Positions 9,777 to 60,146 of a stretch of 64,000 nucleotides of DNA are shown here, in pieces. The DNA is from Breoghania sp. (GTDB lineage: Bacteria > Pseudomonadota > Alphaproteobacteria > Rhizobiales > Stappiaceae). The stretch spans positions 518,228 to 582,227 of the forward strand of contig CAXXGA010000001.1 in assembly GCA_963678585.2 (NCBI GenBank), given 5' to 3'. Positions within the stretch are counted from its first letter, which is position 1, and every line of letters starts with the position of its first letter. The notes under the pieces are model-generated. The model was not told where the DNA came from and made no database searches. It was given only the letters and a program-made list of their open reading frames with translations. The translations under genes were made by a program, and so were the position numbers.

Positions 9777-10311
9777 GTTCGCGGCACACGATCATGTGAG
9801 GTCACGGCAAACAGACCCGCATTTCGCAACCGGCTCCCGGCGTCTTGCCCGGGAGCCCCTTTCCGGCGTTCCGTTTTTCCCCGAAGACGACTTGCCGCAG
9901 AGATCCGTGCATTAGTCGCACGAGATCAAGCCCCCCCTCCACAAGCGCCCCGGCTTTTCCCGCCTCATGCGCGAACCCTCGCGGCGATACAGCCTGCGCA
10001 AATCGTTCTGTCCGCGACGGCAGTTTGCTCATCCCGCGCCGACGCAACTCGACAGTATTTTTGCCTAGTGTGCTAATTGTCTTGTTATGCTCTTCGTCTT
10101 TCTCCAGCCCCGCGACACAGATGTGAGCCGGAATTGACGGAAAGATTGACAATCATCAAAGTGCACATACTGCTATTTCCTGTTAGTTTTCGAAACAGTC
10201 ACTCAACCAGTTTGCAATCCAAGGAATTGTGCCCCGACGCGGAGGACACGATACTGCCCCACTCCCGCTCCCAGCGACCCGGGCAGAGACATGAGAATCG
10301 AGGGACGTCCA

Positions 10312-11568
10312 ATGACAAAGTTCAGGAAATTTCTGGCCGCAACAGCGGTTGCCGCATTCGCCCTGCCGGGCATCGCCAATGCAGATGGGACTGTCGAGGT
10401 TCTGCACTGGTGGACATCCGGCGGCGAGGCGAAGGCGGTCGGCGAACTGAAGAACGCGTTCGAGGCCGACGGCGGGAAGTGGATCGATTCCCCCATCGCC
10501 GGCGGCGGCGGGGATGCGGCCATGACTGCGCTTCGCGCCCGCGTGGTGTCCGGCAATCCTCCGACCGCGGTGCAGCTCAAGGGCCCCGGCATTCAGGAAT
10601 GGGCCGAGCTTGGTGCGCTCAACGATGTGCAGGACGTGGCCACGTCCGAGAACTGGGACGGCGTGCTGCCGCCCGCGCTTGCCGAGATCATGAAATATGA
10701 CGGCAAATACGTCGCCGCGCCGGTGAACATCCACCGCGTCGACTGGTTCTGGGCGAACCCGGAAGTGCTCGCCAAGGTCGGCGTCACCGACATGCCGCAG
10801 ACATGGGACGAGTTCAACGCCATCGCCGACAAGCTTCAGGCGGCCGGCATCACGCCGCTCGCCCACGGCGGCCAGCCCTGGCAGGACGCGACGCTGTTCG
10901 AGGACGTCGTGCTCGGCATCGGCGGGCCGGAATTCTTCCTGAAGGCGCTGGTGGAACTCGATCAGGATGCGCTGACCAGCGACACGATGATCAAGTCCTT
11001 CGACCAGCTCCGCAAGCTGCGCGGCTATGTGGACGCCAATTTCTCGGGCCGCGACTGGAACCTCGCAACCGCCATGGTGATGCGCGGCGAGGCCGGTTTC
11101 CAGATCATGGGCGACTGGGCCAAGGGTGAATTCCTCGCCGCCGGCAAGGTGCCGGGCAAGGACTTCGTCTGCGCGGCAACGCCGGGCAAGGGCTTCGTGC
11201 TCAATTCCGACAGCTTCACCTTCTTCAAGGTGTCGGGAGACGATCGCATCAAGGGCCAGAAGAAGCTCGCCAGCCTGATCATGTCGCCGAGCTTCCAGGA
11301 GACCTTCAACCTCGCCAAGGGATCGATCCCGGCCCGCACGGATGTCGCGCTCGACAAGTTCGACGCTTGCGCCAAGAAGTCCCACGAGGATCTGCTGGCG
11401 GCCATCGAGAGCAATTCGCTCGTGCCTTCCATGGCGCATGAAATGGCCGTTTCTCGCTCCGTGCGCGGCGAGTTCATGGATCTCGTGACCAACTTCTTCA
11501 ATTCCGACATGAGCTCTGAGGACGCGGTGAAGACGCTTGCCGCAGCCATCAAGCGGGCCCAGCAGTAG
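10312..11568 (+). CDS. Sugar ABC transporter substrate-binding protein (glucose/GtsA-like)
   Basis: Sec signal MTKFRKFLAATAVAAFALPGIANA; EVLHWWTSGGE, APVNIHR.DW.W.N, HGGQPWQDATLF, QIMGDWAKGEF, PSMAH. Confidence 0.88.
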   Translation: MTKFRKFLAATAVAAFALPGIANADGTVEVLHWWTSGGEAKAVGELKNAFEADGGKWIDSPIAGGGGDAAMTALRARVVSGNPPTAVQLKGPGIQEWAELGALNDVQDVATSENWDGVLPPALAEIMKYDGKYVAAPVNIHRVDWFWANPEVLAKVGVTDMPQTWDEFNAIADKLQAAGITPLAHGGQPWQDATLFEDVVLGIGGPEFFLKALVELDQDALTSDTMIKSFDQLRKLRGYVDANFSGRDWNLATAMVMRGEAGFQIMGDWAKGEFLAAGKVPGKDFVCAATPGKGFVLNSDSFTFFKVSGDDRIKGQKKLASLIMSPSFQETFNLAKGSIPARTDVALDKFDACAKKSHEDLLAAIESNSLVPSMAHEMAVSRSVRGEFMDLVTNFFNSDMSSEDAVKTLAAAIKRAQQ

Positions 11569-11586
11569 GATACGTCCCGGTATCAG

Positions 11587-11617
11587 GAGCCGGCGCGTCT
11601 CGACGCGCCGGCTCTTT
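11587..11617 (+). other. Intercistronic stem-loop after the sugar-binding protein gene
   Basis: 13-bp perfect inverted repeat GAGCCGGCGCGTC / GACGCGCCGGCTC followed by TTT. Confidence 0.65.
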
Positions 11618-11648
11618 CGTCTGCCGTTTTTGAATCTCGCGGGGGGAG

Positions 11649-12530
11649 ATGTTCTCGATGGGACGCCTCATGGAGCGATGGCTGCCGAAACTGGTGGTTT
11701 CTCCACTGTTCGCAGTCAGCCTTTTCTTCGTCTACGGCTTCATCGCCTGGACGCTCTACATCTCGTTCACCCGCTCCGGCATCCTGCCGAACTACGATCT
11801 GGCGGGACTGATCCAGTACACGCGGCTGTGGCAGACGCCGCGCTGGTACGTGGCGCTGGCGAACCTCTTCGTCTTCTCCGCACTCTTCATCGGGGTCTGC
11901 ACGATCATCGGCATCATCCTCGCCATTTTGCTGGACCAGCGCATCCGGGCGGAGGGCGCGATCCGCACAGTCTTCCTCTACCCGATGGCGCTTTCCTTCA
12001 TCGTCACGGGAACGGCGTGGAAGTGGATCCTCAATCCCGGCCTCGGGCTTGAAAAGGTCGTCCACGGTTTCGGCTTCACCGACTTCCGTTTCGACTGGCT
12101 GGTCAATCCGGATATGGCCATCTACACGGTGGTGATCGCGGGCGTGTGGCAATCGTCGGGCTATGCGATGGCGCTGTTTCTGGCTGGCCTTCGCTCCGTC
12201 GACGACGACGTTCTGAAGGCGGCCGCCATCGACGGAGCCGGGCCCTGGCGCACCTATACGCGCATCGTTTTGCCGAACCTGAGGCCGGTGTTCCTGTCGG
12301 TCTTCATCATTCTGGCGCACCTCTCCATCAAGAGCTTCGACCTCGTCATCGCGCTCACCAACGGCGGGCCGGGATATGCCACCGACATGCCCGCAACCTT
12401 CATGTACGCCTTCGCCTTCCAGCGTTCCGAACTGGGGACCGCGGCGGCAAGCGCGGTGATGATGCTGGCGACGATCCTGGCGATCATCGTTCCCTATCTC
12501 TATTCGGAACTGAGGGAGGCGAAACGATGA
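11649..12530 (+). CDS. Sugar ABC transporter permease
   Basis: Hydrophobic; LYPMALSFIVTG.AWKW, EAA-loop variant LKAAAIDGAG, DLVIALTNGGPG. Confidence 0.9.
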   Translation: MFSMGRLMERWLPKLVVSPLFAVSLFFVYGFIAWTLYISFTRSGILPNYDLAGLIQYTRLWQTPRWYVALANLFVFSALFIGVCTIIGIILAILLDQRIRAEGAIRTVFLYPMALSFIVTGTAWKWILNPGLGLEKVVHGFGFTDFRFDWLVNPDMAIYTVVIAGVWQSSGYAMALFLAGLRSVDDDVLKAAAIDGAGPWRTYTRIVLPNLRPVFLSVFIILAHLSIKSFDLVIALTNGGPGYATDMPATFMYAFAFQRSELGTAAASAVMMLATILAIIVPYLYSELREAKR

Positions 12531-13420
12531 GCAACGAACCGGCTCCGGGCATCGTGCGCGCAAGGGGCAGCACGCAGATTTTCCTGCGATATCTGCTCTA
12601 TGCGCTGCTCGCCCTCTTCTGCCTCTACTATCTGACACCGCTTTTCGTGATGGTGACGACGTCTCTGAAAAGCGTCGACGAGATCCGGCAGGGCTCGCTC
12701 ATCGCGCTACCGCAGGCACCCAGTCTCGCCGCATGGACGAAGGCGTGGGACACGGCCTGCGTGGGCGTGCGCTGCGACGGGCTGAAGCCCTATTTCTGGA
12801 ACTCCATCGTCATGGTCGTTCCCGCCGTTCTGCTGTCGTCCTTTCTCGGTGCGCTCAACGGCTACGCGCTCACCAAGTGGCGCTTTCGCGGCGCGAACGT
12901 CATCTTCGCGCTGATGCTGTTCGGGGCCTTCATCCCGTTTCAGGTGGTGCTGCTGCCAATGGCCCGGACACTCGGCGCGCTGGGGCTGGCGGGATCGGTC
13001 TTCGGACTGATCCTCGTCCACACGGTCTATGGCCTCGCCTTTTCGACGCTGTTCTTCCGAAACTTCTTCGTCGGCGTCTCCGACAGCATCGTCAACGCGG
13101 CCAAGATCGACGGGGCGGGCTTCTTCCGCATCTTCTTCGCGATCATGATGCCGATGGCCCTTCCGGCCATGGTCGTGACCATCATCTGGCAGTTCACCCA
13201 GATCTGGAACGACTTCCTGTTCGGCGTCGCCTTCACCATCGGCGACAGCAACCCGCTGACCGTTGCGCTGAACAACCTCGTCAACACCTCCACGGGCGTG
13301 AAGGAATACAACGTCGACATGGCAGCCGCGATCATCGCCGCGCTGCCGACGCTTCTCGTCTACATCATTGCAGGCAAATATTTCGTCCGCGGTCTGGCCG
13401 CCGGCGCTGTGAAAGAATAG
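12527..13420 (+). CDS. Sugar ABC transporter permease
   Basis: ATGA overlap; TSLKS..EI, NAAKIDGAG, WQFTQIWNDFLFG, AALPTLLVY..AGKYFVRGL. Confidence 0.9.
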   Translation: MSNEPAPGIVRARGSTQIFLRYLLYALLALFCLYYLTPLFVMVTTSLKSVDEIRQGSLIALPQAPSLAAWTKAWDTACVGVRCDGLKPYFWNSIVMVVPAVLLSSFLGALNGYALTKWRFRGANVIFALMLFGAFIPFQVVLLPMARTLGALGLAGSVFGLILVHTVYGLAFSTLFFRNFFVGVSDSIVNAAKIDGAGFFRIFFAIMMPMALPAMVVTIIWQFTQIWNDFLFGVAFTIGDSNPLTVALNNLVNTSTGVKEYNVDMAAAIIAALPTLLVYIIAGKYFVRGLAAGAVKE

Positions 13421-13432
13421 GCAACGCGAACC

Positions 13433-14539
13433 ATGGCCAGCATCAGCCTTCAAGACATCTGGAAACGCTTCTCCGGCGTGGAGGTTCTCAAGGGCATCGA
13501 CCTTGAGATCGAGGACGGGGAATTCGTCGTGCTCGTCGGCCCCTCGGGCTGCGGGAAGTCCACCCTGCTCAATCTCATCTCGGGGCTTGAGACGATCTCG
13601 TCGGGCCAGATCGTGATCGGGGACAGGACCGTCAACGACATCCCGCCGAAGGATCGCGACATCGCACTGGTGTTCCAGTCCTATGCGCTTTACCCGACCA
13701 AGACGGTGGAGGACAACATCACCTTCGGGATGCAGACCCGCAAGGTGCCGCAGGCTGAACAGAAGGCGGCGCTGGCGGAGGTCTCCGGCATGCTGCATAT
13801 CGATCATCTTCTTGAGCGCAAACCCGGCCAGTTGTCGGGCGGCCAGCGCCAGCGCGTCGCCATGGGCCGGGCGCTGGTGCGCAAGCCGGAAGTGTTTCTC
13901 TTCGACGAGCCACTTTCCAATCTCGACGCCAAGCTGCGCATCGAGATGCGCACCGAGATCAAGAAGCTGCACCAGCGCCTCGGCAAGACCATCGTCTATG
14001 TGACCCACGACCAGATCGAGGCCATGACGCTGGCCAGCCGGATCGCGGTGATGGACAACGGCCATATCCGCCAGTTCGCCGATCCCAAGACGATCTATGA
14101 GGAGCCGGTCGATCTCTTCGTGGCCGGTTTCATGGGCTCGCCGCCGATGAACATGCTGCCGGGCACGCTTCTGCGCGACGGAGATCTGTTCGTCGTGCCC
14201 GACGGGGCCGGTCCGGGGCTTCGCTTCCCGTTGCCCGCAGACATCGCAGGCCGCGTCACGGCCGAAGACGGGCACGAGGTGATGCTCGGCATGCGGCCGG
14301 AGACGATCTTTGCCGCGGGAACCGAGCTTCCCGGTCCGGACCGTTTCGTCTTCGAACGCCCTGTGGAGGTGATCGAGCCGACGGGGCCGGACACGATGCT
14401 GGTCTTCACCATCGGGGAGACGGAGCTTTTCGCGCGCGTCCGTCCGCAGGATGCGGGTGCACAAGACGCACCGTTCCGCTTCGAGGTCGAGATGTCCAAG
14501 GCGAAGCTGTTTGACCGCAAAACGGGCTTGCGACTTTAG
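13433..14539 (+). CDS. Sugar ABC transporter ATP-binding protein (MalK family)
   Basis: [46 protein letters not shown]-terminal TOBE-like region. Confidence 0.93.
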
Positions 14540-14599
14540 AGGGCATCGGTGAATCTGCCGATCCTGCCCTCTTGCCCACCAGTTTGCCGAAGACCCCGC

Positions 14600-15142
14600 A
14601 TGATCAAGACACGCCCTCTCGTCCCTGAGGCCTTCGCCCCCTTCGGTCAGGTCCTGCGCAGCGGTGCGGGCGATACGAAGATGATCCGCGACGGGCAGGT
14701 CCTCATGACCAAGACGCTCGCAGAGGTCGACCATGAGCCTGAGGGCAGCGATTTCGCCATCGACTTTCATGACGTACCCGCGCTGTCCGGTCCGCTCGTC
14801 ATACGGGAGGCGGAACGGCACCTGCAGTCGGCGCAGGTCTTCGTGCCGGTAAACGCCTCGCGCTACCTCGTTGTCGTATGGCCGGGAGACCCCGGCCCCG
14901 GCGTGGAGCCCATCGCCTTCATCGCGGGCGCGCAGGACGTGATCGTCTACAATCCCGGCACCTGGCATCACGGCATCGTGGCGCTCGACCGGCGCGCGGT
15001 GTTCACCTCGCTTTTCTGGCGGCCCAATGACGGGCGACCCGACACGATCTTCCAGACGCTGCAAGAGCCCATCAAGGTGGACTGGATGTCCATGCCCGCA
15101 GATCTCAGCGGGCGCGAAGAAAGCGCCTTCGGCGGGTGGTGA
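14600..15142 (+). CDS. Ureidoglycolate lyase (AllA)-family protein
   Basis: PL..EAFAPFGQV, ERH...QVFVP, YLVVV, Y.PGTWHH cupin motifs of the AllA family. Confidence 0.7.
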   Translation: MIKTRPLVPEAFAPFGQVLRSGAGDTKMIRDGQVLMTKTLAEVDHEPEGSDFAIDFHDVPALSGPLVIREAERHLQSAQVFVPVNASRYLVVVWPGDPGPGVEPIAFIAGAQDVIVYNPGTWHHGIVALDRRAVFTSLFWRPNDGRPDTIFQTLQEPIKVDWMSMPADLSGREESAFGGW

Positions 15143-15349
15143 AACCTCACCCTCGCCCGCTGACCGGCAGAAGCTGAGTCGTTTTCTCCCCAACCATCTG
15201 CGCGAACGTCGTCGGATGACGCTGCGGATTCACCGTCTCGGCGAAATGCCGGAACGTGCAGACATCGTCACACTTGATCTGGCGGCGGGTATTGGGGAAA
15301 ACGAGTGCCACAGGCGCTTCCACGCCCCTCCCCAATCCGGAACGGTTTC

Positions 15350-16645
15350 ATGGTCGATCTTCTCATTCGCAACGCCAACCTGCCCGACGGGCGGGAGGGC
15401 ATGGACATTGCTGTCACGAACGGCCTCATCACCGCCGTCGAACATGACATTCCCACCGAGGCGGGAAGCGTGGTGGAAGCCGACCGGTGCCTCGTCACCC
15501 CGCCCTTCGTCGACCCGCATTTCCACATGGATGCGACCCTGTCTCTCGGGCTGCCGCGGATGAACGTCTCCGGCACCTTGCTTGAGGGTATTTCGCTGTG
15601 GGGCGAGCTGCGCCCCATGCTGAGCCGGGAAGCGGTGGTCGAACGCGCACTCAAATATTGCGATCTCGCTGTCTCGCAGGGGCTTCTGGCCATCCGCTCG
15701 CATGTGGACGTATCCGATCCGAAGCTCGTCACCGTGGAAGCGCTGCTTGAGGTTCGCGAGAAGGTCGCGCCCTATATCGACCTGCAGCTCGTCGCCTTCC
15801 CGCAGGACGGCTACTACCGCTGCCCGGAGGCTGCCGATGCGCTGACCCGCGCGCTCGATATGGGCGTCGACGTGGTGGGCGGCATCCCGCATTTCGAGCG
15901 CACCATGGAAGAGGGCCGCAAGTCGGTGGAGGCGCTGTGCCGGATCGCGGCGGAACGCGGGCTTCGCGTCGATATGCATTGCGACGAGAGCGACGATCCA
16001 ATGTCGCGCCACATCGAAACGCTGACGGCGGAAACCGTGCGCCACGGACTTCAGGGCCGGGTGGCCGGTTCGCACCTCACCTCCATGCACTCCATGGACA
16101 ACTACTACGTCTCCAAGCTCATCCCGCTGATGGCGGAGGCGCAGATACACGCCATCCCGAACCCGCTCATCAACATCATGCTTCAGGGGCGGCACGACAC
16201 CTACCCCAAGCGCCGCGGCATGACCCGTGTGCGCGAACTGATGGAAGCCGGGATCAACGTCGCCTTCGGCCACGACTGCGTGATGGACCCCTGGTACTCG
16301 ATGGGCTCCGGCGACATGCTGGAAGTCGCCCATATGGCGGTTCACGTGGGGCAGATGGCTTCCATGGAGGATCGCCGCAAGCTCTTCGACGCCGTCACGG
16401 TCAACTCCGCCCGCGTCATGGGACTTGAAGGCTACGGACTGGAGCCGGGCTGCAACGCCGACATGGTGATCCTGCAGGCGCGCGATCCGCTGGAGGCCCT
16501 GCGCCTTAAGGCGACGCGGCTGGCGGTGATCAGACGTGGCAAGCTGATTGCCAGAACACTGCCGCGGGTGGCCAGCCTCAACATTCCCGGGAGGCCGGAT
16601 ATGGTCGACCCTGCAAGTTACGCCCCTGGCGCGGGCGACGAATAG
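15350..16645 (+). CDS. codA: Cytosine deaminase (CodA)-family amidohydrolase
   Basis: PFVDPHFHMD, VAFPQDG, GGIPHFE, MHCDE, GSHLTS, GHDCVMDPWY. Confidence 0.9.
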   Translation: MVDLLIRNANLPDGREGMDIAVTNGLITAVEHDIPTEAGSVVEADRCLVTPPFVDPHFHMDATLSLGLPRMNVSGTLLEGISLWGELRPMLSREAVVERALKYCDLAVSQGLLAIRSHVDVSDPKLVTVEALLEVREKVAPYIDLQLVAFPQDGYYRCPEAADALTRALDMGVDVVGGIPHFERTMEEGRKSVEALCRIAAERGLRVDMHCDESDDPMSRHIETLTAETVRHGLQGRVAGSHLTSMHSMDNYYVSKLIPLMAEAQIHAIPNPLINIMLQGRHDTYPKRRGMTRVRELMEAGINVAFGHDCVMDPWYSMGSGDMLEVAHMAVHVGQMASMEDRRKLFDAVTVNSARVMGLEGYGLEPGCNADMVILQARDPLEALRLKATRLAVIRRGKLIARTLPRVASLNIPGRPDMVDPASYAPGAGDE

Positions 16646-16787: not shown

Positions 16788-17789
16788 ATGGCGATCCTGA
16801 ATTCAATGACACGCCGCCGCGTACTTGCGGCCGGTGCAGCACTTGGCGCAGGCCTTGCGGTGACCGTTGCCGGTCACGGCGCAGCCTTTGCCGCCGACGT
16901 TCTCAAGGTTGCGGGCATTCATGCCTCGCCGGTGGAGAACGCCTGGAACTCGCGTCTTCACGAAGCTCTGCTGGCAGCCGCGAAGGACGGTGTCATCGAG
17001 TATGAATTCTCCGAAGGCATTTCCGGCACTGACTACCCGCGCGCCATGCGCGAATATGCGGAAAAGGGCGTCGATCTGGTGATCGGCGAATCCTATGCGG
17101 TCGAACGCGAAGCGCGTCAGGTCGCCAAGGACTATCCGAACGTGGCCTTCGTGATGGGCTCCTCGGGCGAGGCCTCCGGCGACAATTTCGGCGTCTTCGG
17201 CACGTGGAACCACGACGGCGCGTATCTCGCGGGCATGCTGGCCGGCAAGATGACGAAGACCAACATCGTCGGCTCCGTCGGCGCGATCCCGATCCCGGAA
17301 GTCAATCAGCTCATCAACGCCTTCAATGCGGGCGTGAAGGAAGTGAACCCGGAAGCCAAGACGCTCGTCTCCTTCATCGGCACCTTCTTCGATCCCCCGA
17401 AGGCGCGTGAAGCGGGTCTTGCCGAAATCGACGCGGGCGCGGATATCCTGTTCGGCGAGCGCATCGGCACGGCGGATGCCGCCAAGGAGCGCGGCATCAA
17501 GGCCGTCGGCTCGCTGATCGACTACACCGACCGCTATCCCGACACCGTCTTCGCCAATGCCATGTGGTACTTCCGCCCGATCCTCGATGCGGCCATCGCG
17601 GACGTGAAGGCCGGCAAGCCGGTCGGCAAGAACTACACCGCCTACGGCCTGATGAAGGACGGTGGTTCCGACATCGTCTACACCAAGGGCGTTGCGCCTG
17701 CAGATGCCGAAGCGGCGATGGAGAAGCGCCGCGCCGAGATCAAGGCCGGCACCTTCGAGGTTCCGCGCGACATCAGCGAACCGAAGTAA
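16788..17789 (+). CDS. BMP/PnrA-family nucleoside ABC transporter substrate-binding protein
   Basis: Tat-like TRRRVLAAG signal; YLAGMLAGKMTKTNIVGSVG, FNAGVKEVNP, GADIL motifs. Confidence 0.88.
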   Translation: MAILNSMTRRRVLAAGAALGAGLAVTVAGHGAAFAADVLKVAGIHASPVENAWNSRLHEALLAAAKDGVIEYEFSEGISGTDYPRAMREYAEKGVDLVIGESYAVEREARQVAKDYPNVAFVMGSSGEASGDNFGVFGTWNHDGAYLAGMLAGKMTKTNIVGSVGAIPIPEVNQLINAFNAGVKEVNPEAKTLVSFIGTFFDPPKAREAGLAEIDAGADILFGERIGTADAAKERGIKAVGSLIDYTDRYPDTVFANAMWYFRPILDAAIADVKAGKPVGKNYTAYGLMKDGGSDIVYTKGVAPADAEAAMEKRRAEIKAGTFEVPRDISEPK

Positions 17790-17825
17790 GACACAGCCGT
17801 TTGAGGCTTGAGGGTCACTGAGACC

Positions 17826-19259
17826 ATGACAACACAGAACGACGCGATGGCCCTTGCCGAGGCCATCGCGTCTTCACGTGTAAGCGCGCTTGAAGCCATG
17901 GAGGCATCCCTTCAGGCTGCGCGCGAGCACGCGGATCTCGGCGCAATCGACGTGCTCGTGCCCGAACTGGGCCTTGCCCGCGCAGACGCGCTGGAAGAGG
18001 AGCGTCACGACAATCCCGAACGATTTGCCGCCCGCCCCTTTGCAGGCGTCCCGACGCTCGCCAAGGATCTGGGCAGCCCCTTTGCCGGAATTCCCGGTGC
18101 CGCCGGTTCCAACGCACTGCGCGGCCTATCCGACGGAAGTGCGGATTCCGAGTTCGCACGGCGTGTGCGCGAGACGGGCCTCGTGCCCTTCGGCAACACG
18201 CTGGTGCCGGAATTCGGCATGTCCGTTTCCACCGAACCTCTGGGCCGTGCGCCGACGCGCAATCCGCTCGACCCCACCCGCACGGCGGGCGGCTCGTCCG
18301 GCGGATCCGCGAGCGCGGTCGCTTCCGGCATCGTCGCCATCGCGCACGCCACCGACGCCGGTGGCTCCATCCGAATTCCCGCCGCCTGTTGCGGCCTCAT
18401 CGGGCTGAAGCCCTCGCGCGGGGTCATGCCCGGCGCACCCGATTTCCGCAACCATCTGGGCGGGCTGGCGGCCGAGCTTGCCGTCTGCCGCTCCATCCGC
18501 GATGCGCGCCTTGCCTTCGATCATCTGGTGGGAGACGCCCGCGGCCCCGCACCGGAACCCGTGATCGAGCAGACCTGGAGCAGGTTCGCAAGCAACGAGC
18601 CGCGCACCATCGGGCTCATCACCGACTGCGGGCCTTATGCGATTTCCGCCGCGCGCGCCGATGCGGTCGCAAGCACGGCGGCGCTTCTGGAAGGCGCGGG
18701 CCATCGAATCGTCGATCTGCCCTTTACCCGGATCGCCGGGCTGGTGGAGACGGGCCGCAAGGCGTTCGACCGGATCATCTGCGCCTTCACGGCGGCCATG
18801 TTTGCACAAGGCACGCTCGATGAAGGCAAGATCGAGCCGCTGACCCGCGCCGCCCTTGCCCGCGGACGGGCCATGCCCGCGCATGAACTGTGGAGCGCGA
18901 TGCAAGAAGGCGTGCTTGCCGCCCATGCGATGTGGCAGATCTTCGACGAGGTCGATACTGTGCTCGCACCGATGCTGGCGGATGCACCGCCGCATCTCGG
19001 CGCCTTTCCGACAGATCACGACGACGTCCAAGCGCATTGGGACCGCATGACCGCTTTTGCCCCGCTCGCCTCTCTGGCCAACATCACCGGCGTGCCTGCG
19101 CTCAGCATGCCCGTGGGCGCAGATGGCGACGGGCTGCCGCTTCCCGTGCAACTCCTCGCCCCGATGGGAGCCGACCGCCGCCTTCTCTCGCTTGGCGCAA
19201 CGCTTGAGGCGCTCAGCCCGTGGACCCACCGCTTCCCCGTCGCGGGGCTTGCCTCATGA
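17826..19259 (+). CDS. Amidase-signature family hydrolase
   Basis: GVPTLAKDL (Lys), AGGSSGGSA (cis-Ser), ATDAGGSIRIPAACCGLIGLKPSRG (Ser), ANITGVPALSMP. Confidence 0.9.
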   Translation: MTTQNDAMALAEAIASSRVSALEAMEASLQAAREHADLGAIDVLVPELGLARADALEEERHDNPERFAARPFAGVPTLAKDLGSPFAGIPGAAGSNALRGLSDGSADSEFARRVRETGLVPFGNTLVPEFGMSVSTEPLGRAPTRNPLDPTRTAGGSSGGSASAVASGIVAIAHATDAGGSIRIPAACCGLIGLKPSRGVMPGAPDFRNHLGGLAAELAVCRSIRDARLAFDHLVGDARGPAPEPVIEQTWSRFASNEPRTIGLITDCGPYAISAARADAVASTAALLEGAGHRIVDLPFTRIAGLVETGRKAFDRIICAFTAAMFAQGTLDEGKIEPLTRAALARGRAMPAHELWSAMQEGVLAAHAMWQIFDEVDTVLAPMLADAPPHLGAFPTDHDDVQAHWDRMTAFAPLASLANITGVPALSMPVGADGDGLPLPVQLLAPMGADRRLLSLGATLEALSPWTHRFPVAGLAS

Positions 19260-20782
19260 GCGATACGCCCGTCCTGCGCCTTTCCAATATCTCCAAGACC
19301 TTCGGCACGACGGTGGCCAACGATGCCGTCTCCATCGATCTTGCCCATGGCGAGGTGCTGGCGCTTCTGGGTGAGAACGGAGCGGGCAAGACGACGCTGA
19401 TGTCGATCCTCTTCGGCCACTACACGCCCGATACGGGCACGGTGGAGGTGGAGGGTCGGGAGCTGCCGCCGGGCCGCCCGAGGGCTGCCATCGATGCGGG
19501 CGTCGGCATGGTTCACCAGCACTTCTCGCTGGCGCCGAACCTGACGGTTCTGGAAAACGTCATGACCGGAACGCAGAGCCTCGTAAAGCTGCGCTCCGAC
19601 ACGAAAACCGCGCGCGCGAAACTTGCCGAACTGGCCGACCGCTTCGGTCTCGCGGTCGATCCGGATGCGCGACTCGGCGACCTTTCCGTCGGCGAGCAGC
19701 AGCGCGTGGAAATTCTCAAGGCGCTCTATAACGACGCGAAGATCCTGATCCTCGACGAGCCGACCGCCGTGCTCACCAATGTGGAGGCCGAACGGCTTTT
19801 CGCCACCCTGCGGGAGATGGCGCGCCAGGGCCTGTCGCTGATCTTCATCTCGCACAAGCTGCACGAGGTGATCGCAGCCGCCGACCGCGTCGTCGTCCTG
19901 CGCGGCGGCAAGGTGGTGGCCGAGAGGCAGGCCTCTGAGACCACCAAGGACGAGCTGGCGGAACTGATGGTGGGCCGCCGCATCGCGCGGCCCAAGCGCG
20001 AGGCGGGCAAGCCCGGTGCGATGGTTCTGGAAGCCATCGGCGCATCGCTCACCGTTGATGACGTCGCCCGGCTGACCGACCTGAATTTCAAGCTCCATGC
20101 GGGCGAAACGCTCGGCATCATCGGCGTTTCCGGCAATGGGCAGGCCCAGCTCGCCCAGATGGTTTCCGGCCTCGCCACCCCCACCGAAGGCGAGCTGCGG
20201 CTCTTCGACGAGCCGATCACCGAGGGCGTGGCAGCCCTCGTTGAGGCCGGGGTCGGGCGCATTCCCGAAGACCGCAATTCCGAAGGGGCCATCGGCGAGA
20301 TGACCCTTTGGGAGAACGCGATCCTTGAGCGGGTCAGAAGCCCGCGGTTTTCGAAGAACGGCCTCGTCAACCGGCAAGCGGCGCGCGCCTTCGCCAATAC
20401 GATCATCGAGGAATTCGACGTGCGCGGCGGGGTGCCCGACCGACGCACGCGGCTTCTTTCCGGCGGCAACATGCAAAAGCTCATCCTCGGGCGGAACCTG
20501 CACGATGCGCCGAAGCTGCTCATCGCCGCCCAACCCACGCGCGGGTTGGATGAAGGCGCGATTGCCGCCGTCCATACCCGAATTCTGGAAGCACGCAACA
20601 ATGGCGCAGCGGTTCTGCTGATCTCGGAGGATCTGGAAGAGGTGATCAATCTGGCCGACCGCATCCAGGCCATCGTCAAGGGACGGCTTTCCCCGCCGCT
20701 TGCAGCCGAAGAAGCGGATGCGCGCAAGCTCGGCCTGATGATGGCGGGCGACTGGAGCAAGGAGGTCGTCCATGCGTCTTGA
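19256..20782 (+). CDS. Nucleoside/simple-sugar ABC transporter ATP-binding protein (two ABC domains)
   Basis: LLGENGAGKTT, LSVGEQQRVEILK, ILDEPTAVL, LSGGNMQK, AQPTRGLD. Confidence 0.92.
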   Translation: MSDTPVLRLSNISKTFGTTVANDAVSIDLAHGEVLALLGENGAGKTTLMSILFGHYTPDTGTVEVEGRELPPGRPRAAIDAGVGMVHQHFSLAPNLTVLENVMTGTQSLVKLRSDTKTARAKLAELADRFGLAVDPDARLGDLSVGEQQRVEILKALYNDAKILILDEPTAVLTNVEAERLFATLREMARQGLSLIFISHKLHEVIAAADRVVVLRGGKVVAERQASETTKDELAELMVGRRIARPKREAGKPGAMVLEAIGASLTVDDVARLTDLNFKLHAGETLGIIGVSGNGQAQLAQMVSGLATPTEGELRLFDEPITEGVAALVEAGVGRIPEDRNSEGAIGEMTLWENAILERVRSPRFSKNGLVNRQAARAFANTIIEEFDVRGGVPDRRTRLLSGGNMQKLILGRNLHDAPKLLIAAQPTRGLDEGAIAAVHTRILEARNNGAAVLLISEDLEEVINLADRIQAIVKGRLSPPLAAEEADARKLGLMMAGDWSKEVVHAS

Positions 20783-21821
20783 ACGCCGCGCCCACAGGCC
20801 GTTCGGGCTGGTCGTCGCCTCGCCGATCATCGCCATCTTCGCAGCGCTCGCCATTTCCGGCGTGCTGATCGCGCTGGCAGGCGCGCCCGTTCTCGAAGCC
20901 TATTACCAGATCGGCGTCGGCTCCTTCGGTTCCCGCCTTGCCGCGACCGAAACCCTGACGCGGGCGACCCCGCTCATCTTCACCGGCCTCGCCGCCGCCG
21001 TCGCCTTCCGCGCGCAGGTCTGGAACATCGGCGCTGAAGGTCAGTTCTTCATCGGCGCAATTGCGGTCGCCGCCTTCGGCGCGGAACTCACCGCAGGCAT
21101 GCCGCCCGCGCTCGCCATCCCCGTGCTGATGCTGATCGGGGCGATTGCAGGTGCCTTCGTGCTGCTGGTACCGCTCGGCCTGCGCCTGCGTTTCGGCGTC
21201 GACGAGGTGGTGACCACGCTGCTTTTGAATTTCGTGGCCGTGCTCTTCGTCTCCATGATGATCGAGGGCCCGCTGAAAGACCCGCTCGCCTTCGGCTGGC
21301 CGCAGTCCGTTCCGGTCGCCGACAATGCGCTCCTGCCGAAGATCATCGCGCGCACGCGTCTGCACATAGGATTGATTGTCGCCATCGTCATCGCCGTCAT
21401 CGTCTATGCGGTTCAGGCGCGCACGGTCTTCGGGCTTCAGTCCAAGGCCGCGGGCCTCAGCCCAAGGGCCGCGCGATTTGCGGGCGTGCCGCTGGCGTCC
21501 ACGCTCATCAAGGTCGCGTGTCTTTCCGGCGGGCTTGCGGGCCTTGCGGGCGCGGTGGAGGTGATGGGCGTGAAAGGCTATGTCACGACCGACCTTTCGC
21601 CCGGTTTCGGCTATTCCGGCATCATCGTTGCCATGCTCGCCAACCTGCACCCGGTGGGCGTGGTGGCCGCCGCCATCTTCACCGCGGCGATGTTCGTGGG
21701 CGCTGACGGCATGAGCCGGGCCATCGGCATTCCCAGCTACATCGCTGACGTGACGGTCGCGCTTTCGCTGCTGACCATGCTGGTCGCGATCTTCTTCACG
21801 CAGTACAGGATCCGCAAATAA
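20772..21821 (+). CDS. Nucleoside ABC transporter permease
   Basis: TPLIFTGLA.AVAFRA..WNIGAEGQ, GVDEVVTTLLLN, GFGYSGIIVAMLA.LHP. Confidence 0.9.
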   Translation: MRLERRAHRPFGLVVASPIIAIFAALAISGVLIALAGAPVLEAYYQIGVGSFGSRLAATETLTRATPLIFTGLAAAVAFRAQVWNIGAEGQFFIGAIAVAAFGAELTAGMPPALAIPVLMLIGAIAGAFVLLVPLGLRLRFGVDEVVTTLLLNFVAVLFVSMMIEGPLKDPLAFGWPQSVPVADNALLPKIIARTRLHIGLIVAIVIAVIVYAVQARTVFGLQSKAAGLSPRAARFAGVPLASTLIKVACLSGGLAGLAGAVEVMGVKGYVTTDLSPGFGYSGIIVAMLANLHPVGVVAAAIFTAAMFVGADGMSRAIGIPSYIADVTVALSLLTMLVAIFFTQYRIRK

Positions 21822-22762
21822 TGGAGATCCTCGAAATCTTCGCCTCCGCCGGTCTGTGGGCTGCCGTGCTGCGCATCGCAACCCCGCTGATCTTCGGCAC
21901 GCTGGGCGCGCTGCTCTGCGAACGCTCCGGCGTCCTCAATCTCGGGATCGAAGGCATCATGACCTTCGGCGCGATGATCGGCTGGCTCGCCGTCTTCAAC
22001 GGCGCGGATCTGTGGACCGGGCTGCTGGTCGCCGCCATTTTCGGCGCGGCCTTCGGCCTGCTTCATGCGGGCCTCACCGTCACGCTGGGCCTTTCCCAGC
22101 ATGTGACCGGCCTCGGCATCACGCTCTTTGCAAGTTCGCTGAGCTATTTCCTCTTCCGGCTGATCGTACCGGTGGCGGGCACGCCGCCGACAATCGAGCC
22201 CTTCCAGCCGATCGACATTCCGGGCTTGAGCGACCTGCCCTTCATCGGGCCGGCGCTCTTCACGCAGACAGCGCCGACCTATCTCGCCATCGCGCTGGCC
22301 GTCGTGCTGGCCTATGCGCTGTTCTTCACGCCGCTTGGGCTTGCGGTGCGCATGACGGGCGAGAACCCGCATGCGGCGGAAGCGCAGGGCGTCAATCCGA
22401 TCAAGGTGCGGTACGGCGCGATCATGCTGGGCAGTGCCTTGATGAGCGTCGGCGGCTCGTTCCTGACGCTTTCGGCCTTCAACTCCTTCTTCCCCACCAT
22501 GATCCAGGGCCGCGGCTGGGTGTGCATCGCGCTTGTGGTCTTCTCCTCGTGGAAGCCGAGCCGCGCGCTTCTCGGCGCGCTGCTCTTTGCGCTGTTCGAC
22601 GCTTATCAGCTTCGCCTGCAGACGGTCGTCGGCAAGGCGGTGCCCTATCAGCTCTTCCTGATGGTGCCCTACGTGATGTCGATTGTCGCTCTGGTGGTGA
22701 TGGCACGGCGCGCACGCGTGCCTCAGGCGCTGATGCAAGCCTATCGGCGCGGCGAGCGGTAA
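21821..22762 (+). CDS. Nucleoside ABC transporter permease
   Basis: ERSGVLNLGIEG, GLAVRMTGENP.AA, GRGWVCIALV, PQALM. Confidence 0.9.
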   Translation: MEILEIFASAGLWAAVLRIATPLIFGTLGALLCERSGVLNLGIEGIMTFGAMIGWLAVFNGADLWTGLLVAAIFGAAFGLLHAGLTVTLGLSQHVTGLGITLFASSLSYFLFRLIVPVAGTPPTIEPFQPIDIPGLSDLPFIGPALFTQTAPTYLAIALAVVLAYALFFTPLGLAVRMTGENPHAAEAQGVNPIKVRYGAIMLGSALMSVGGSFLTLSAFNSFFPTMIQGRGWVCIALVVFSSWKPSRALLGALLFALFDAYQLRLQTVVGKAVPYQLFLMVPYVMSIVALVVMARRARVPQALMQAYRRGER

Positions 22763-55428: not shown

Positions 55429-55857
55429 CTATCGGTTGGGACCGGACCCGAAGCGGTTCGGTCCCGGATCTCCAGCTTTCAGACCTACGCCGAGCAGGAC
55501 CAGGAAATTGATCAACGGCACGACCCAAAGGACGGCGGTCAGGCCGGGCCATCCGAAATCGCGGGCGCGCTTGGCGATCAGCACAAAGAACACCCACTGG
55601 AAGACCAGCAGAAAGAACATGGCGATGGAGCCGGTGTCGCTCATGACCACATGTTCAACGCCGTCCAGATTGGTCTCAATGACCATCATCCCTTCCCACA
55701 GGGGCCTGAGTGCGAAATTGATGCAGGTCAGCGTCGCAAGCGCCAGCCAGTAAACCTGACGCGAGATGCGTCCGGCCGGGCTGAAAAACAGGCTGACAAG
55801 CGTCATGGGTCTGGCAGGCGCAACGGGTCGGTCGTTCATCGGAGCATTCTGTTCCAT
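55429..55857 (-). CDS. DUF805-family inner-membrane protein
   Basis: [30 protein letters not shown]. Confidence 0.8.
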
Positions 55858-59684: not shown

Positions 59685-60146
59685 TCAGCCGCGTCCGCGA
59701 TAGGGCGGCACACCCTGATCGGGGATCCAGACGCCCTTGGGCGCTTCGCCCGTCTGCCAGAAAACATCGATGGGAATGCCGCCACGCGGATACCAGTAGC
59801 CGCCGATGCGGAGCCAGCGGGGGCTCAGCCTCTCCGTCAGCCGACGCCCGATAGCCACCGTGCAATCCTCGTGGAAAGCGCCGTGGTTGCGGAATGACGT
59901 CAGGAAAAGCTTCAACGACTTGGATTCCACCAGCCACTGATCCGGCACATAGTCGATCACGATGTGGGCGAAGTCGGGCTGGCCGGTCACCGGGCAGAGA
60001 GACGTGAACTCCGGGCAGACGAAGCGCGCCACATAGTCCGTGTCGGGATGCGGATTGGGCACCCGGTCAAGCGTCGCGCTTTCGGGATCGGTCGGGATCT
60101 CGACCGCATGTCCGAGGGCTGGGGCGTCACTGGATGAGGCAGACAT
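59685..60146 (-). CDS. queF: NADPH-dependent preQ0 reductase (unimodular QueF)
   Basis: [16 protein letters not shown], QueF motif [21 protein letters not shown]. Confidence 0.95.

Follow-up and report, generated by a model that had tools for sequence, protein, structure and literature searches.

An amidase-signature gene translationally coupled inside a probable cytosine-type importer operon of Breoghania and other Rhizobiales

Why would a bacterium encode a cytoplasmic amidase in the middle of an operon for an ATP-binding cassette (ABC) importer? The question is raised by a stretch of 64,000 nucleotides from Breoghania sp. (assembly GCA_963678585.2, contig CAXXGA010000001.1, positions 518,228 to 582,227), hereafter called the window, in which positions 16788-22762 hold five genes in the same direction, encoding a BMP/PnrA-family binding protein (BMP), an amidase-signature (AS) amidase, an ATPase and two permeases (Table 1). 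An initial annotation had described this gene order, the overlap of the amidase and ATPase genes and an intact Ser-cisSer-Lys triad in the amidase, and had proposed that a nucleoside importer takes up a compound whose amide must be removed before the neighbouring cytosine deaminase, CodA, can act. The descriptive part of that annotation was confirmed: family profile matches support the order, the overlap can be read directly as ATGA at 19256-19259, where the TGA of the amidase overlaps the ATG of the ATPase gene, and the triad is intact. At the other junctions, 36 nt lie between the BMP stop codon and the amidase ATG (17826), the ATPase and permease 1 genes overlap by 11 nt, and the two permease genes overlap by 1 nt (TAATG). 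The five genes are one translationally coupled operon; a scan for promoters and terminators found nothing above chance. The answer we reach is that the amidase is a lineage-specific, selected and dispensable add-on to the importer, not an obligatory first step.

The core of the operon (binding protein, ATPase and two permeases) is most likely an ABC importer for free cytosine-type bases and not for nucleosides, because of its linkage to CodA, its free-base-binding relatives, the lack of CodB, a RutR-type box upstream and a published plasmid-loss phenotype; from the linkage, relatives, regulation and phenotype we infer that cytosine is the transport substrate. The solved structures nearest to the BMP protein are AtzT (6PI5, E 2e-34) and a Brucella protein (3S99, E 1e-31), which hold free guanine or adenine (PMC6834077), while the nucleoside receptor TmpC/PnrA is a far weaker match (E 5e-9). 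The N-terminus of the BMP protein (MAILNSMTRRRVLAAG..AFA/AD) resembles a twin-arginine signal. The best NCBIfam matches of the transporter proteins are to the putative B6 ABC transporter models (NF047927-30), and these fall far below the cut-offs (98/400, 428/670, 218/400 and 195/465 bits). With free-base binders as its nearest solved relatives and a nucleobase deaminase as its constant partner, the importer lends no support to the label of a nucleoside operon given in the initial annotation.

To place the operon in context, we compared 401 Rhizobiales genomes, with the large searches scoring the best 4-5 candidates per genome. BMP homologues (E<=1e-70) occur in 124 of these genomes (~30%), always as a single copy, and form two groups that are parted by long, fully supported branches in the BMP tree: clade II, at least 62% identical to the protein in the window (32 genomes including this one), and clade I, at most 54% identical (92 genomes). 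Of 33 amidase-bearing loci, 21 have CodA next to the cassette, and of the 25 clade I loci that were fetched widely enough, 18 have it next to the operon. CodA stands upstream in some lineages and downstream in others, in both clades, and no other gene recurs next to the cassette; clustering of the flanking open reading frames (ORFs) found no conserved neighbour beyond CodA, regulators included. The Breoghania genome, which is rated 100% complete, encodes a single CodA over the NF005748 cut-off and no NCS1/CodB permease (PF02133). In Sinorhizobium meliloti, the only CodA on the plasmid pSymA is the one in the orthologous cassette. Strains cured of pSymA do not grow when cytosine supplies the nitrogen, and they excrete cytosine, and putting a pSymA back restores both traits (bioRxiv 10.1101/296483). 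A literature search for a described cytosine ABC transporter gave no usable result. We read the core as an ordinary cytosine ABC importer, though one for which an experimental description has apparently never been given.

Regulation points in the same direction. The RutR-type box lies in the 142 bp that separate codA from the BMP gene and is kept in three other Breoghania genomes, with differences only at box positions 8-9, in the central spacer. In 15 of 59 genomes, which come from both clades, a box with at most two mismatches stands upstream of the BMP gene, compared with a chance expectation of ~0.001 per locus if equal base frequencies are assumed. Membership in the RutR regulon is indicated by a putative palindromic TTGACCAnnTGGTCAA operator upstream together with a RutR-like gene in the genome, both of which were found. 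The latter encodes a RutR-like TetR regulator (TIGR03613 241 bits, equivalog cut-off 368; PF08362 171 bits) and lies in a pyd cluster (C2:2798000-2817900, locus L091) with genes for dihydropyrimidinase (pydB), LysE, an M20 carbamoylase (pydC), a class-III aminotransferase, pydA and pydX. RutR-type boxes at C2:2806836 and C2:2810720 occupy both promoter gaps of this rutR/pyd locus, and the reductive pyrimidine pathway of Breoghania is predicted to be complete and RutR-controlled. A published reconstruction of the RutR regulon lists codA, allA and several predicted pyrimidine/nucleoside ABC transporters among its targets, as well as a “predicted amidase amiC” in one genome (PMC5343134 supplement). 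Two more RutR-like boxes occur in the window, at 55643-55658 (2 mismatches) and 60055-60070 (3 mismatches); the latter has one mismatch to the relaxed Breoghania pattern used in a genome scan (G000:C1:578282).

The amidase has a history of its own within this importer family. In 28 of the 32 genomes of clade II it separates the BMP gene from the ATPase gene; 17 of these carry amidases 44-55% identical to that of the window and ten, from one genus, carry amidases 39-42% identical. Of the 19 closest amidase matches in other Rhizobiales genomes (E<=1e-90), 17 occupy the same slot, as do all 10 of the more divergent ones (39-42% identical) that adjoin clade II BMP genes, which argues that the arrangement did not arise by chance. 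An ATGA or GTGA overlap at the amidase stop codon is visible in 28 of the 34 loci inspected, and at the other loci the ATPase start lies within a few bases. The amidase with its 4-nt overlap has been retained over at least six families, in cassettes that diverged down to 62% BMP identity. In the amidase tree all cassette copies form one clade whose subgroups broadly mirror the BMP tree, which suggests that the gene was inserted once, at the root of one transporter clade, and was then inherited together with the cassette. No amidase at E<=1e-75 was found in 400 other Alphaproteobacteria, and the insertion therefore appears to be specific to Rhizobiales. The initial annotation had named absence of the amidase from most homologous operons as evidence against its proposal; across all 124 genomes with the importer this is the case, since 28 have the amidase, and within the close clade it is not.

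Four clade II genomes have the ATPase gene directly after the BMP gene, with no amidase, and are nested inside the amidase-bearing clade. The BMP tree needs three changes of amidase state, and because well-supported branches force two of them, the history is reconstructed as one gain and at least one loss. Breoghania species differ in this respect: some have clade II together with the amidase, others have clade I and lack the amidase, and none has both clades. The clade II cassette of this genus clusters with those of Rhizobium and Sinorhizobium and not with those of its own family, so it was acquired by transfer and replaced the native type. The annotation of Rhizobium leguminosarum Vaf-108 lists, in order, a BMP family protein, an amidase, an ABC ATP-binding protein, two permeases and an amidohydrolase, and the same six genes are found on pSymA of S. 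meliloti 1021 (1,331,764-1,338,970). Compared with these two orthologous loci, the proteins of the window are 82-86% (BMP), 50-54% (amidase), 70-72% (ATPase), 73-74% (permease 1), 79-80% (permease 2) and 73-77% (CodA) identical. The closest proteins are from Breoghania (97%, 88% and 71% identity), and orthologues of the amidase at 49-57% identity are common in Rhizobium, Sinorhizobium, Mesorhizobium, Chelativorans, Devosia and Pelagibacterium, often on plasmids. In several loci (L058-L062 of family f18, L064 and L065) the spacer between the BMP and amidase genes measures 118-267 bp, compared with 5-51 bp elsewhere, with the amidase-ATPase overlap kept; the long spacer may be an attenuator that raises expression of the binding protein over the rest of the operon.

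These distributions bear directly on the proposal that this clade imports an amide-bearing modified base or nucleoside, on which the amidase must always act before CodA can. The embedding and translational coupling of the amidase speak for such a role, as does the long branch of the clade II BMP proteins, which differ from clade I at several positions beside the inferred ligand contacts, among them N54 vs V and N141 vs I. We mapped these contacts from AtzT by sequence alignment only, at seven positions, which in clade II read W53/N54, S/A102, Y103, E171, F/W200, E224 and R225. The four clade II operons that lack the amidase match the amidase-bearing ones at all seven, and two of the four have CodA adjacent and full-length BMP, ATPase and permease matches. 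None of the 41 distinct clade I genomes examined has the amidase in its operon, and CodA adjacency persists in this clade as described above. No sampled genome holds both clades, as would be the case for equivalent rather than distinct functions, which suggests that clades I and II are functionally equivalent. The pSymA-loss phenotype, moreover, concerns plain cytosine (bioRxiv 10.1101/296483). We therefore consider an obligatory amide-removal step quite improbable: because clade I is equally CodA-linked without an amidase, no sampled genome holds both clades and the four operons that lost the amidase keep the same aligned contacts, cytosine uptake would not need the amidase. The embedding, translational coupling and intact catalytic residues of the amidase, its conservation with the transporter and the linkage of the cassette to CodA and to pyrimidine regulation are thus supported, whereas the claim that an amide must first be removed is not.

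If the amidase is dispensable, is it still a working enzyme? Its reading frames are full length and the translation covers positions 2-445 of the 445 in the PF01425 profile. The triad, made up of K80, S157 (GGSSGG) and S181 (GGSIR), is invariant in 27 orthologues, which share 60 invariant columns in all, the AS signature included. In nine independent close pairs the ratio of nonsynonymous to synonymous substitution rates (dN/dS) is 0.11-0.19, compared with 0.01-0.12 for the neighbouring genes. An AlphaFold2 (AF2) model was obtained with a pLDDT of 90.1 and a pTM of 0.93, and nearly all of the Foldseek matches listed for it are AS-family enzymes, with NylA (3A2Q) at the top (TM 0.87); FAAH, GatA, urethanases and an aryl acylamidase are also among the nearest folds. 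From the invariant triad, the dN/dS values and the confident AS-fold model, we conclude that the amidase is in all probability a working cytoplasmic Ser-cisSer-Lys hydrolase under purifying selection. That it is a decaying or non-catalytic passenger we regard as very improbable; it is indeed the most divergent gene of the cassette, but the full-length frames, the conserved columns and the dN/dS values are at odds with decay.

The function of this enzyme is harder to assign from its relatives. The nearest characterised folds (NylA, aryl acylamidase, FAAH and urethanase) all cut N-substituted amides or carbamates. The best NCBIfam match of the amidase is PRK07869 (280 bits, cut-off 418), and scores to AtzE (151/426), indoleacetamide hydrolase (146/532), GatA (136/481) and allophanate hydrolase (108/511) are likewise below the cut-offs. 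An ESM Atlas search returned only generic “amidase” clusters, and the sequence and structure database searches found no characterised close relative. Some UniRef entries carry the name “indoleacetamide hydrolase”, but these are source labels behind which no characterised enzyme was found.

A further clue comes from Labrys, in which two amidases (L054:9036-10310 and L056:8875-10398) nest in the Rhizobium subclade of cassette amidases and yet stand outside the cassette, directly downstream of a gene for a Mem_trans (AEC-family) permease. Because the Labrys amidase left one transporter operon and was re-paired with another, there is a hint that the substrate of the enzyme is an imported compound. 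Close to these genes are one for a hydantoinase A-like protein and one for a GntR/Peripla_BP_3 regulator, and the same Labrys genomes keep an amidase-free clade I operon elsewhere. We also considered whether these two genes might be the “bam” indoleacetamide hydrolase of Bradyrhizobium and rejected this, as they are Labrys genes whose origin lies in the Rhizobium cassette clade.

Our best explanation, which we hold tentatively and with somewhat less than even confidence, is that this is a cytosine-type importer operon to which an amidase was later added that unmasks an amide-blocked pyrimidine. The importer would take up cytosine, and probably 5-methylcytosine, which the adjacent CodA would deaminate to uracil or thymine, and these products would enter the RutR-controlled reductive Pyd pathway. 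By analogy with E. coli RutR, whose biology is the source of the idea that the CodA product acts as inducer, uracil or thymine would also relieve RutR repression of the importer. The amidase would then widen the diet of the operon: a pyrimidine blocked by an amide, for instance an N4-acylated cytosine, would arrive through the same importer and be unmasked by the enzyme; this step is a guess, which we prefer because the embedding, the re-pairing in Labrys and the N-substituted-amide chemistry of the nearest relatives fit it. The more specific claim that the embedded enzyme is a new AS amidohydrolase, unrelated to YqfB, that unmasks N4-acylated cytosines or another amide-blocked pyrimidine is unlikely as it stands. 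Candidate sources, again at the level of a guess, are N4-acetylcytosine from RNA turnover and the acyl-cytosine moieties of nucleoside antibiotics.

Several observations weigh against this explanation. The canonical RutR box is missing at many loci, including those of Rhizobium and S. meliloti. The amidase reaches no curated NCBIfam subfamily cut-off and matches no characterised subfamily. It diverges about twice as fast as its cassette neighbours (39-55% vs 60-86% identity), as expected of a less constrained or substrate-shifting enzyme. The ligand-contact positions are nearly the same in the clades with and without the amidase, with W53, E171, the aromatic residue at 200, E224 and R225 common to both and N54 vs V as the main difference, and at the seven aligned positions no sign was seen that the pocket had been widened to take an acylated base.

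Some of these observations give weight to a different view, in which the amidase is a nitrogen-scavenging passenger that acts on an amide unrelated to the imported base and shares only its expression with the importer, having settled in a permissive slot after the BMP gene. That slot does take other cargo: in a clade I operon (L107:2519-4785, genome G180) it holds a gene for an MFS transporter (PF07690, 167 bits), and accessory genes seem to have landed repeatedly in this gap between the BMP and ATPase genes. A passenger would also be consistent with the loss of the amidase at least once while the aligned ligand-contact positions stayed unchanged, with its faster divergence and with its lack of a specific family match. 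It is less easily reconciled with the retention of the 4-nt overlap across families and cassette divergence, and with the re-pairing of the amidase with another transporter in Labrys. We consider a passenger role possible, if on the unlikely side, and almost as likely as the pyrimidine-unmasking guess.

The amidase might instead serve a downstream step of pyrimidine breakdown, with a cyclic or ring-opened amide or ureide as its substrate, and back up or bypass a Pyd step; N-carbamoyl-beta-alanine, ureidomalonate or a hydantoin-like lactam would be candidate substrates under this unlikely alternative. Co-regulation by the RutR-type box would suit such a role, as would the best fold match, NylA, which opens a cyclic amide, and the weak matches to AtzE and allophanate hydrolase, AS enzymes that cleave ureido amides. 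The scores to the latter two are far below the cut-offs, however, and Breoghania already has what appears to be a complete RutR-controlled reductive pathway with an M20-type PydC, so that there is no need for a back-up enzyme for ureido intermediates, possible as such a role is. Moreover, the cassette is not accompanied by any Pyd or barbiturase gene, and the flank clustering found no further conserved gene. Two narrower candidates were also set aside: replacement of beta-ureidopropionase by the amidase was rejected, since an M20-type PydC is present in the RutR/pyd cluster, and a creatinine route (CodA as creatinine deaminase, the amidase acting on N-carbamoylsarcosine) is unlikely given that no hydantoinase accompanies the cassette and the RutR box is of the pyrimidine type. 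Unmasking of an amide-blocked pyrimidine remains the explanation we favour.

Table 1. Features of the importer operon and its upstream neighbours in the window.
Feature	Coordinates	Strand	Evidence
Periplasmic binding protein of the BMP/PnrA family, clade II; probable receptor for cytosine-type nucleobases	16788..17789	+	PF02608 122.1 bits, cut-off 24.1
Amidase-signature (AS) amidase, 477 aa, cytoplasmic	17826..19259	+	PF01425 246.4 bits, cut-off 27
Fused two-domain ABC ATPase	19256..20782	+	PF00005 in two stretches, 182 bits
Permease 1 (BPD_transp_2)	20772..21821	+	PF02653 117 bits
Permease 2 (BPD_transp_2)	21821..22762	+	PF02653 100 bits
CodA cytosine deaminase, functional partner of the importer	15305..16645 (longest ORF)	+	NF005748 799.9 bits, cut-off 438
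AllA-like (ureidoglycolate lyase family) cupin	14549..15142	+	PF04115 90 bits
RutR-type operator TTGAGCAACCGGTCAA	16715..16730	+	2 mismatches to TTGACCANNTGGTCAA

Two further genes, those for CodA and an AllA-like cupin, lie upstream of the five-gene operon. The family match of CodA begins at residue 16 of the longest ORF, and its true start is therefore probably near 15350. The initial annotation had also drawn the AllA-like gene into a salvage route together with the importer, but no cassette locus outside Breoghania matched it: tblastn gave matches at Breoghania loci only, with some of the loci reaching just 1.5 kb on either side of the BMP gene. The protein itself scores below all NCBIfam cut-offs. 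The AllA-like gene thus appears to be a neighbour in Breoghania only and not part of the conserved unit. A separate sugar ABC operon (SBP_bac_1, BPD_transp_1 and MalK-type genes) occupies 10291-14539 of the window and ends 9 nt before the AllA-like gene. The order of these two is also kept in a Breoghania metagenome-assembled genome (MAG; locus L001). In this congener (L001/L022, the MAG and genome G003) the BMP gene directly follows the AllA-like gene with no codA in between, and nearly every gene is found in two or three tblastn pieces, which looks like the indel errors of a low-quality assembly and not decay.

What these results change most directly is annotation. Where genes next to codA are labelled as a “nucleoside/BMP ABC transporter”, the best reading is that they encode the missing importer for cytosine in organisms without CodB, and this correction touches 124 of the 401 sampled Rhizobiales genomes (~30%), including S. 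meliloti pSymA and plasmids of R. leguminosarum. Within this importer, an apparently catalytically intact amidase has been translationally coupled since one ancient insertion. If it does unmask an amide-blocked pyrimidine, it would represent a new enzyme activity and a new salvage input, and a dedicated “pro-cytosine” salvage route would feed CodA in Rhizobiales; if it does not, the operon illustrates how an enzyme for nitrogen scavenging can be carried along by transporter genes.

Comparison with known systems places the operon near several of them. In both sequence and fold, the amidase is matched best by NylA (6-aminohexanoate cyclic dimer hydrolase; 3A2P/3A2Q) and a bacterial aryl acylamidase (4YJ6) (E 2.5e-44; TM 0.87, 0.85). 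These enzymes share its Ser-cisSer-Lys machinery and both cut N-substituted amides, but they are only 25-28% identical and belong to the unrelated contexts of nylon oligomer and xenobiotic degradation. YqfB, an ASCH-domain N4-acylcytosine amidohydrolase of E. coli, is a known enzyme that unmasks N4-acetylcytosine and N4-acetylcytidine (PMC6972931), but differs in fold and size, with 103 aa compared with 477 aa for the AS enzyme described here, for which the reaction is a guess. Like the BMP protein, AtzT (6PI5/6PI6) has a Tat signal, and the window protein keeps the base-site Glu (E171) and stacking aromatic residue (F200) of AtzT (PMC6834077). AtzT and 3S99 bind purines, however, and the affinity of AtzT is 0.11 uM for guanine and only 800 uM for cytosine (dissociation constants; PMC6834077). 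The loop that carries Asn218/Asn220 in AtzT is two residues shorter in the window protein and reads Glu-Arg, consistent with binding of a different base. In common with the members of the RutR regulon reconstructed by Leyn et al. 2016 (PMC5343134; RegPrecise), the operon is preceded by a RutR box, and the same motif recurs at the rutR/pyd locus. That reconstruction is a computational prediction in which the conservation and history of the amidase are not described. The closest functional parallel is codBA of E. coli, in which, as proposed here, free cytosine is taken up and handed to CodA, which makes its amino nitrogen usable. In contrast to codBA, the Breoghania operon has a BMP-type ABC importer in place of an NCS1 permease (no PF02133 protein), apparent RutR-type operator control and an embedded AS amidase. 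The operon works like codBA but is not a member of it.

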